A stretch of DNA of 55,627 nt from Planctomycetota bacterium (GTDB taxonomy: Bacteria; Planctomycetota; Planctomycetia; Planctomycetales; Planctomycetaceae). The notes beneath the pieces are model-generated. The model made no database searches and was not told the DNA's origin. It saw only the letters and a program-made list of their open reading frames with translations. The translations under genes were made by a program, and so were the position numbers. This document shows positions 48,247 through 50,124 of the stretch, one piece after another (positions within the stretch are counted from its first letter, which is position 1; each line of letters starts with the position of its first letter). The stretch is from the NCBI GenBank assembly GCA_043718945.1, contig JAYSUV010000042.1, positions 1-55,627 of the forward strand, written 5' to 3'.

Positions 48247-50124
48247 ATGCGTCTCCTCACACGCACTCCCGATCTCGTCGAACGAGTGCGAATGCTCGGG
48301 AAGCCTCTGCCTACCAACCCACAGGGATTCCTGTCCCAAGCGATGATCGCACTGCGGGAGCGGGCGAGGACCATGACGACGACAACCGAGAGCGACCTGC
48401 TCGCCCGCTCCTTTTCTCTCGGCACCGAAGCCATCCGCCGTGTCTTTGGGTTTGTGTTGCACGATGTCCAGATTCGCGGAGCCGCAGCCGTGGCGCGCGG
48501 CGATGTGGTGCAGATGCAGACTGGCGAAGGCAAGACGATGGTCGCCGCATTGGCCGCGATCAATCGTGCCTTGTCAGGTCGAGGAGTGCATGTGATCACG
48601 ACCAACAGCTATTTAGCTGAGAGAGATTGCGAAGAGCTGCGACCAGTGTTTGACATGCTCGGGATCTCGCTGGGAGTGTTAAGGCAGGAGTCGACGCTCG
48701 CTGAGACTCGGCGAGCCTACGCCGCCGAAGTGACTTATGGTCCGGGGTATCAGTTCGGGTTTGACTACCTGAAGGACCAGTTGGCTTTGAGGACCGTTGT
48801 GGAGGTTCCTCTTGGTTCAAAACTCAGAGCAGGGCTGAATGGCCAACGAGTCGGTGAGACACCACTGCGGCAGCGACCTCGCGACTTCGCGATCATCGAC
48901 GAGATCGACAGCGTGCTGTTGGATGAAGCGTCGACTCCACTGATCCTCAGTGGATCGGCCAGCGGGATCGATGATCCAGCACCGTATGAAATTGCCCGCG
49001 ACTGCGTGGCTCGCTTCGCGGCGGAGACCGACTTCACCATCGAGTCGCCATCGCAGCGCATCTTGCTTTCGGTCGACGCGGTCACTCGCTCGCAACAGGC
49101 TCTGACAGCTCGGCCAAAAGTGCGACTGGCCCGCCCGTGGGCCACCTATCTGCGAAATGCAATCCAGGCACAGTACAAGCTCCATCGCGACGAACACTAC
49201 GCCGTGATCGAGGATGAGGTCCGCATCGTCGATCAGAACACCGGTCGTATTTTTGCCGACCGTTCTTGGCGTGACGGACTGCATCAAGCGGTCCAGGCCA
49301 AAGAGCAGGCTTCGATCACGCCGAGTGAGACATCACTCGCTCGCATCACCCGGCAGAGATACTTCCAGCAGTACAACCAGCTGGCCGGGCTGACCGGGAC
49401 GGCTCTGGGTGCCGAGCCGGAGTTCGAGAGTGTCTACGCCTTGCGAGTCGTTCCGATCCCGACAGCGCGCCCCTGCTTGCGGCGTCTGGAACGGCAACGG
49501 GCGTTTGGTACTCTCGACGCTAAACGAAGTGCCATCGCGAGCGACACCGCGAATCGCTTTCACCGGGGGCAGCCCGTGCTGATTGGAACGCGGACGATCG
49601 AAGAGAGCCGACGCCTTTCGGATCAGTTCACGGTACTCCAACTTCCACACATCGTCCTCAACGGACTGCAAGATGCGGACGAAGCATCCATCATCTCACA
49701 AGCAGGTCAAACCGGGGCGATCACGATCGCGACGAACATGGCCGGGCGCGGGACCGACATCAAGTTGAGTCCGGCGGCGAGAGACGCTGGCGGGCTGCAT
49801 GTCGTCGTCTCGGAGCCGCACATCTCGCAACGGATCGATCGCCAGTTGATCGGGCGTTGTTCTCGACAAGGCGACCCTGGATCGGCCCAGGTCTTCGTCT
49901 GTGCCGAGGATCAACTGTTGACGCTGCATGCTCCCAAGCTCGCGAAACGGCTGCGCCGATTGGCCGGGGCGGACGGCGAGTGCAGCGTCGATGTCGCCGG
50001 TGATGTTCTCAGAACTCAACAGCGCATTGAACTGGAACACTCTCAGCAGCGTGCGAAGCTGTTGAAGCAAGATGAGTGGTTGGATGGAGTTCGCAAAGTC
50101 CTCTCAGGATGGGAAACCGAATGA
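48247..50124 (+). CDS. SecA-like ATPase paralog: NBD1, preprotein cross-linking domain and NBD2 present; most of the helical scaffold, wing and C-terminal tail absent
   Basis: MQTGEGKTM (Walker A), [34 protein letters not shown]...[32 protein letters not shown] and [31 protein letters not shown] match the SecA motor motifs in order. The protein ends 80 residues after GDPG. Start taken at ATG 48247; the ORF is open from 48148. Confidence 0.85.
   Translation: [625 protein letters not shown]

Follow-up and report, generated by a model that had tools for sequence, protein, structure and literature searches.

SecA-like proteins distinct from the canonical preprotein motor have been described by Kamneva, Poudel and Ward (2015, PLoS One, PMC4452313) under the name “secondary SecA_DEAD domain proteins”, whose Pfam domain SecA_SW is absent or present as a fragment and which form a clade apart from canonical SecA, beside the actinobacterial SecA2. 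The family is found in Planctomycetes among other phyla, Chlorobi included, a canonical secA coexists in the carrier genomes described, and the genes lie in a conserved locus together with those for HlyD, GAF-HlyD, and Peptidase_M50-HlyD proteins and, in some cases, OEP. It was suggested in that paper that ATPase activity comes from the SecA-like protein and that the M50 protein may form a membrane pore; no cargo was named, and a PqqD-like domain was not recognized. Here, we analyzed a stretch of 55,627 nucleotides (hereafter the window) from a Planctomycetota bacterium (GenBank assembly GCA_043718945.1, contig JAYSUV010000042.1), which encodes a short SecA next to three periplasmic adaptors, a TolC-like protein, and a giant repetitive protein.

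Several other described systems share parts with this locus. The Escherichia coli fragment SecA-N68 (PDB entry 5k9t) and the isolated DEAD motor (3bxz) have nearly the same content, i.e., the motor plus the preprotein cross-linking domain (PPXD) but none of the C-terminal domains for regulation and SecY engagement, and both are structural matches of the short SecA. SecA-N68 is a laboratory fragment, whereas the short SecA of the window is natural and selected, and its scaffold helix is longer by some 36 residues, which have a conserved motif of their own. The accessory SecA2 proteins of Actinobacteria and Firmicutes are, like the short SecA, second paralogues with (for the short SecA, putative) dedicated clients, and the C-terminal region of mycobacterial SecA2 is also reduced; unlike the short SecA, however, SecA2 keeps the scaffold and the two-helix finger and has a length of ~760–800 aa. 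Giant proteins of Omnitrophota and Actinobacteria contain SecA_DEAD and PPXD without scaffold or wing domain, as does the short SecA, and these embedded modules were proposed to export the giant protein that carries them (West-Roberts et al. 2023, bioRxiv 10.1101/2023.11.21.568195). The embedded module is fused into the giant protein near its own membrane spans, while the short SecA of the window is encoded by a separate gene accompanied by adaptors and a protease.

Type I secretion systems and tripartite pumps (HlyBD-TolC, peptidase-containing ATP-binding cassette (ABC) exporters, and MacAB-TolC) have adaptors and a TolC-family channel in common with the window system, and further shared features are a (here putative) leader-cleaving protease fused to an inner-membrane component and a giant, repetitive, adhesin-like cargo, which in our case is a candidate. 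In contrast to these systems, the window system has no ABC transporter, its ATPase is soluble and derived from SecA, its adaptors are of three kinds, a site-2-protease-like membrane domain takes the place of the C39 protease, and the putative signal is N-terminal, whereas the type I RTX signal is C-terminal. The leader systems of ribosomally synthesized and post-translationally modified peptides (RiPPs), such as the RiPP recognition elements (RREs) PqqD and TfuB1 and the daptide and YydH/LiaK proteases, show significant similarity to the PqqD-like domain and the HExxH protease of the window, but in the window both form one protein with a periplasmic adaptor and are accompanied by a SecA motor, and the likely substrate has several thousand residues, in contrast to the short peptides that are RiPP substrates.

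As judged from sequence, the window locus is a member of the secondary SecA_DEAD family, since it has the same SecA_DEAD/PPXD/NBD2 architecture, falls into a clade apart from canonical SecA, and has the same neighbors, with nothing essential that differs. The idea of a short SecA that works with adaptors was published in 2015 and is not new here; what is new beyond that paper is the recognition of an RRE domain and of a conserved protease site in M50-HlyD and a candidate cargo, the giant protein with its leader. Literature searches found no later experimental or structural work on the family, neither the PqqD-like domain/protease reading nor the link between an LExRxLL motif and giant cargo in the searchable literature, and nothing on the mechanism of LEPR-XLL or DUF4347 or on their link to the system. 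We assign a probability of roughly 0.55 to the reading, built on sequence comparisons, that the short SecA is the dedicated motor of a leader-dependent, TolC-linked, two-membrane exporter of giant surface proteins.

A naturally short SecA

The short secA gene (48247–50124, forward strand) encodes 625 aa from this start, and its translation confirmed an open reading frame (ORF) with all of the motifs that an earlier note on this DNA had quoted; Walker A, DExD, and GRxGRQGDPG are all present. The true start codon is uncertain: alternative starts at 48148 (the first ATG), 48292 (as called by NCBI), and 48343 would give 658, 610, and 593 aa, respectively, and gene calls for this protein in public records have lengths of 593, 610, and 625 aa. 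Matches to Pfam and NCBIfam models outline three domains, which in Pfam are SecA_DEAD (E-value 5.1e-80), SecA_PP_bind (1.1e-20), and P-loop_SecA, i.e., NBD2 (3.3e-45), and the Pfam scan gave no match to SecA_SW. The SecA_PP_bind match marks a PPXD inserted in NBD1 (48985–49293, forward strand; residues 280–382 of the 658-aa ORF) and thereby bears out the cross-linking domain that had previously been proposed between NBD1 and the TGTA motif. The ORF ends 80 residues past the GDPG motif, as had also been pointed out, and this tail measures 64–87 aa (median 80) in 39 complete relatives from the fetched loci, whereas the 71 canonical SecAs compared have tails of 207–411 aa. The three Pfam domains recur in over 100 homologues from databases, with lengths of 590–690 aa.

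In the AlphaFold model of the short SecA (built with 52 family sequences; mean predicted local distance difference test score 87.8, predicted template modeling (TM) score 0.83), the last element is a single helix comprising residues 584–619 of the 625-aa form (49996–50103, forward strand). These ~36 residues represent the kept N-terminal part of the long scaffold helix and finish in the family-conserved motif D..W.D.VR; Q591, E595, R602, D609, and W611 are invariant in alignment A1. Comparison with solved structures places the end of the match at chain residue 610 of the Bacillus subtilis SecA and at residue 654 of the Thermotoga maritima SecA, and the NCBIfam SecA and SecA2 models align only up to positions ~607–611 of 774–789. 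None of their cut-offs is reached: for canonical SecA (TIGR00963/PRK12904), the short SecA scores 535.8 bits against 800 (TIGR00963) and 515.2 against 814, and, for the SecA2 models TIGR03714, TIGR04221, TIGR04397, and NF012136, 421.5/930, 400.9/725, 477.6/1085, and 368.5/1100, respectively. The earlier statement that the SecY-engaging half is missing holds for the two-helix finger, the wing domain, and the C-terminal tail but not entirely for the scaffold, of which the ~36-residue helix is retained alongside NBD1, PPXD, and NBD2.

The model superposes best on SecY-bound SecA with a closed clamp (6itc_A, TM-score 0.86; 5eul_A, 0.83), with 0.82 for the SecY-bound 3din_A, and together with the domain matches this predicted fold supports the view, already expressed in the earlier note, that the ATPase and clamp modules are intact. 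A pose nearest to that of substrate-engaged SecA is compatible with a function in export, although it is not decisive.

The C-terminal regions of canonical SecAs from the control loci retrieved nothing from any frame of the window by tblastn (best E-value 0.018), and matches to full-length SecA never extended beyond base 50121, i.e., the missing part was not found in another frame. A frameshift or a concealed C-terminal half is ruled out by this search and the comparison of tail lengths. The stop codon of short secA (TGA, 50122–50124) overlaps the start codon of the HlyD gene (ATG, 50121–50123) as ATGA, and an identical 4-bp overlap is present in the closest relative, locus L001, which suggests translational coupling. 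Compared with the 80%-identical ortholog in L001, the ratio of nonsynonymous to synonymous substitution rates (dN/dS) comes to 0.074 over the full gene and to 0.088 over its final 80 codons; these values are only rough because dS is near saturation, but they argue for strong purifying selection.

A neighbor-joining tree of 57 short and 71 canonical SecAs separated the two groups in 100 of 100 bootstraps. A profile scan with the short-SecA alignment yielded 74 canonical secA loci and six short ones, and the canonical loci were kept as negative controls; because this alignment keyed on motifs common to all SecAs, the anchor for the metagenome scan was switched to M50-HlyD. By tblastn, the HlyD, GAF-HlyD, and M50-HlyD neighbors were present at the short-SecA loci and at none of the 74 canonical secA loci, in agreement with the dedicated link to co-transcribed adaptors that had been suggested. 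The separate clade, this exclusive linkage, and the literature speak against the short form being the ordinary housekeeping SecA of the lineage, and in our reading it is neither a housekeeping nor a damaged SecA. No second SecA-like sequence is present in the 55.6-kb contig.

The M50-HlyD protein and the linked adaptors

The last gene of the window operon encodes the M50-HlyD protein (53169–55346, forward strand), which consists of a PqqD-like domain, a site-2-protease-like membrane domain, and a periplasmic adaptor. Its N-terminal ~100 residues are identified by profile matches and the predicted fold as a PqqD-like RRE domain (53193–53471, forward strand). The family profile A3 matched the lasso-peptide leader-binding protein TfuB1 (6jx3_B, E-value 0.001) and PqqD (5sxy_A, 0.0012) in the PDB, and 11 of 18 M50-HlyD family members matched Pfam PqqD, the best at 2.6e-08. 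The predicted model of M50-HlyD shows three strands and three helices at residues 16–95, followed by a membrane bundle and the adaptor part.

The zinc-protease motif HExxH (H205, E206, and H209; 53781–53795, forward strand) is invariant in alignments A2 and A5. Its partner motif FNxNPLxRxDGYY is found at residues 298–310, where N299/N301, P302, D307, and G308 are invariant in the same two alignments, so that the motif pair of site-2 proteases, HExxH and NPxxxxDG, is intact. The protein resembles the leader peptidases of daptides (NCBIfam daptide_HExxH, 2.6e-41) and YydH/LiaK (2e-06), with the daptide match below its equivalog cut-off, and the Pfam Peptidase_M50 score of 24.3 is likewise under the cut-off of 27.2. 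When the whole chain was used as Foldseek query, adaptor matches dominated, with MacA, EmrA, and MexA at the top and ZneB also present, all of them TolC-docking adaptors.

The genes of the window are ordered TolC/OEP, short secA, HlyD, GAF-HlyD, and M50-HlyD. The short periplasmic adaptor of the HlyD/RND_mfp type (50121–51011, forward strand) matches TIGR01730 (3.4e-35) and HlyD_3 (2e-18), and GAF-HlyD (51115–52989, forward strand) combines a cytoplasmic GAF domain, one membrane span, and a periplasmic adaptor (Pfam GAF_3, GAF_2, HlyD_D23, and HlyD_3); a GAF-type N-terminus is present in 52 of the 80 M50-anchored loci. The gene for the TolC/OEP-family outer-membrane factor (46192–48009, forward strand) is interrupted by an in-frame TAA (47485–47487), and Pfam OEP matches both halves, which lie in one frame. 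The L001 ortholog is an intact ORF of 592 aa with TAC (Tyr) at this codon, and the TAA is either a real nonsense mutation or a consensus/assembly error of the metagenome-assembled contig. No ABC transporter was found in the window operon (the window ends 281 bp past the last gene) or within 10 kb in L001, and there were no SecY2/Asp neighbors among the window genes or at L001. A promoter/terminator scan of the window was uninformative (two promoter-like sites versus 1.9 expected).

Among the 80 metagenome loci anchored on M50-HlyD, short secA was present in 45, and in 19 of the 23 with enough flank. All 45 of these genes lie directly downstream of M50-HlyD, unlike in the window and L001, where secA is located upstream of the adaptors. 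A variant locus type (L150, L158, L159, and L137) contains GAF-HlyD and M50-HlyD followed by a longer adaptor (359–538 aa), which in L150, L158, and L159 directly precedes a giant gene with DUF4347; no secA occurs in the sequence available for these four loci (~10 kb upstream and 6 kb downstream for L158, shorter for the others).

A giant leader-bearing protein as candidate cargo

Just upstream of the operon and on the opposite strand, the window encodes a repetitive Ig/cadherin-like protein of 5,478 aa (28996–45432, reverse strand) with DUF4347 (1.9e-48), Cadherin_4, and many Big_13 and Big_6 repeats, which is our candidate cargo. Its N-terminus, MFRRTSTNWLRPRTLLMEQLEDRLLFDAVPD, has basic residues ahead of a leader-like motif, LEDRLLFD (residues 20–27; 45352–45375, reverse strand), and no Sec-type hydrophobic core. 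This is the sole match to the motif in the six frames of the window, and the LEDRLLFD variant is common to other giant proteins of the DUF4347 type. Within the first 500 residues, Pfam reported no family besides DUF4347 at E ≤ 0.1. Pfam likewise reported no RTX (HemolysinCabind) repeats in the giant protein, which leaves room for a non-RTX C-terminal signal.

Large ORFs beside the system elsewhere start with a similar sequence (..LExLExRxLLSA..). Searched as a regular expression, an N-terminal LExRxLL motif on giant ORFs was found in 15 of 88 system loci versus one of 74 control loci. The system loci (1.03 Mb) contain 15 matches, each of them at the N-terminus of an ORF that extends past the contig end. 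The control loci (1.33 Mb) contain 24 matches, of which a single one lies near an N-terminus in an ORF of 300 aa or longer. The motif-bearing ORF starts within ~500 bp downstream of short secA, on the same strand, in six loci, and small motif-bearing ORFs (at least 40 aa scanned) were absent from the system loci. Three relatives' giant neighbors exceed the 17-bit cut-off of the NCBIfam model NF012209 (LEPR-XLL), an N-terminal model of 24 positions, with 23.2, 25.2, and 25.9 bits. The leaders of the motif-bearing giant proteins are basic and have no strongly hydrophobic stretch.

Giant genes with DUF4347 adjoin the system despite a varied gene order in L001, L002 (strain K23_9), L085, L150, L158, L159, and L166; the last of these, from a betaproteobacterial metagenome-assembled genome, was found in reverse, starting from DUF4347. 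An iterated DUF4347 profile did not extend this linkage past six loci.

Some further observations concern the giant genes. In L085, the leader LRQFEDRVLMSASP is encoded by a separate ORF of 78 aa (6497–6733) in another frame, just upstream of the main DUF4347 ORF (1405–6465, reverse strand), a split that is either a frameshift or an assembly error in the contig. Giant ORFs with cut-off 5' ends lie directly upstream of the system in two loci of the gammaproteobacterial type (L073, 1–5583; L128, 1–8760; forward strand). In Chlorobium chlorochromatii, two giant symbiosis proteins are reported to have no known transport signals and to flank a TolC-like gene (bioRxiv 10.64898/2026.03.19.712371), and the Chlorochromatium genome of that study has one horizontally acquired secA (Cag_1676); this may be a further case of the same system. 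In the window, the strand of the giant gene also encodes, some kb farther downstream (23518–26771, reverse strand), a TPR-repeat protein and an exosortase of the EpsH family (5.9e-31), and the C-terminus of the giant protein has no obvious PEP-CTERM signal. A PSCyt2/PSD1 (DUF1549/DUF1553) protein (17733–19484, forward strand) has a domain pair typical of Planctomycetes, in keeping with the planctomycete origin to which the homologues point.

Proposed export route and competing explanations

The cargo of the proposed exporter would be the neighboring giant surface protein, with its basic N-terminus and LExRxLL motif instead of a Sec signal peptide. Its leader would be bound by the PqqD-like domain at the cytoplasmic N-terminus of M50-HlyD, after which the unfolded chain would be held in the PPXD-NBD2 clamp of the short SecA and threaded with ATP into a passage through the inner membrane that the M50 membrane domains would form; the N-terminus would enter first, possibly while translation is still under way. 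The leader would be cleaved at the intramembrane HExxH...NPxxxxDG site, the HlyD, GAF-HlyD, and M50-HlyD adaptors would span the periplasm to the TolC-like channel, and the GAF domain would gate or regulate the machine. We infer all physical interactions, the direction of transport, and the cleavage of the leader in this model, and the short SecA would act independently of SecYEG. With an N-terminal signal and a processive motor, export could begin before the 16-kb gene is fully translated, as a C-terminal type I signal would not allow. A broader proposal, to which we give somewhat less than even odds, is that the locus represents a distinct and widespread secretion system, in which a SecA-derived motor replaces the ABC transporter, the RRE reads an LExRxLL leader that is often followed by DUF4347, the metalloprotease removes this leader, and the cargo crosses both membranes N-terminus first without SecYEG.

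Several observations weigh against this export model. To our knowledge, no M50 domain serves as a protein conduit. The RRE of the window protein itself, scanned alone, was not matched by Pfam PqqD, and NF012209 gave no match to the window's giant protein at E ≤ 1; the motif link of this protein rests on the controlled regular expression because neither Pfam nor NF012209 matches its leader. Linkage is incomplete on several sides: a leader-bearing giant gene is seen in 12 of the 35 short-SecA loci with room for one, two of three DUF4347 genes looked up in reverse have no system within 10 kb, the M50-HlyD loci L086, L088, L158, and L163 have no SecA nearby, and the short SecAs of L083 (Stieleria maiorica CP036264), L033, and also L008 are orphans, as neither adaptor nor M50 genes lie within 10 kb of them. 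The orphan short SecAs and SecA-less M50-HlyD loci indicate that parts of the system can be encoded separately. Finally, a stop codon lies within the TolC-like gene of this contig, and the operon of Methylobacterium extorquens is hardly expressed in exponential growth (PMC4452313).

The alternative that survives best, although we consider it unlikely, is that the short SecA is an accessory SecA acting on SecYEG, which delivers the giant protein or the adaptors via SecY in the manner of mycobacterial SecA2, while M50, HlyD, and TolC serve only the step from the periplasm to the outside. Systems in which a SecA2 works with the housekeeping SecYEG are known, the short SecA keeps NBD1, PPXD, NBD2, and the first part of its scaffold helix, its model fits the SecY-bound structures best (among them 6itc_A and 3din_A), and some short SecAs are unlinked to adaptors. 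However, no member of the family has the two-helix finger, the wing, or the greater part of the scaffold, the leaders of the cargo have no hydrophobic core of the Sec type, and it is M50-HlyD, never secY, to which the genes are tightly linked, often with overlaps. The N68 truncation engineered from E. coli SecA (5k9t) is an unregulated ATPase and is not known to translocate, which also counts against a function on SecYEG.

It is improbable that the system instead exports or matures small, RiPP-like leader-bearing peptides and that the giant neighbors are incidental. The RRE domain and the likeness of the protease to the daptide and YydH/LiaK leader peptidases would fit such a function, as would the approximately two thirds of loci without a nearby giant leader-bearing gene, but the motif heads giant ORFs in 15 of 15 matches and no small ORF in the system loci, and short peptides would hardly call for a motor that moves polypeptides processively. 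Moreover, no RiPP-modifying enzymes were noticed among the annotated or listed neighbors, for which no dedicated search was made.

We find it about equally doubtful that the system is decaying or inactive in this particular genome, whatever the family does elsewhere. The in-frame TAA that replaces a Tyr codon of the orthologous TolC-like gene points in this direction, but all other genes are intact, short secA appears to be under strong purifying selection relative to its 80%-identical ortholog, the lone C-to-A difference may have arisen in the assembly of the metagenomic contig, and the role of this TolC could be taken by other paralogues.

A module for regulated intramembrane proteolysis or signaling, in which a membrane substrate is cleaved by a GAF sensor together with the site-2-protease-like domain and a SecA-like unfoldase feeds the protease, is highly improbable. 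In its favor, GAF domains have sensory functions and signaling is the usual task of site-2 proteases. In M. extorquens, moreover, GAF-HlyD may be separately transcribed (PMC4452313). Against it, the locus conserves a TolC-family gene and three periplasmic adaptors, the matches of the adaptor part are to adaptors of pumps, and the loci examined have no conserved transcription factor or anti-sigma factor.

Surface proteins of very large size are frequent in Planctomycetes and in many other Gram-negative bacteria, and many of them have no recognizable export signal. If the proposed exporter exists, it would mean that the SecA motor has been reused outside the Sec translocon, that the two orphan sequence families LEPR-XLL and DUF4347 have a function, and that leader recognition in the style of RiPPs is tied to the secretion of whole proteins. 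With 5,666 clusters of M50-HlyD proteins at 50% identity (E ≤ 1e-30), the system is not confined to one lineage, and the prediction of its cargo makes a ten-year-old bioinformatic observation experimentally addressable.

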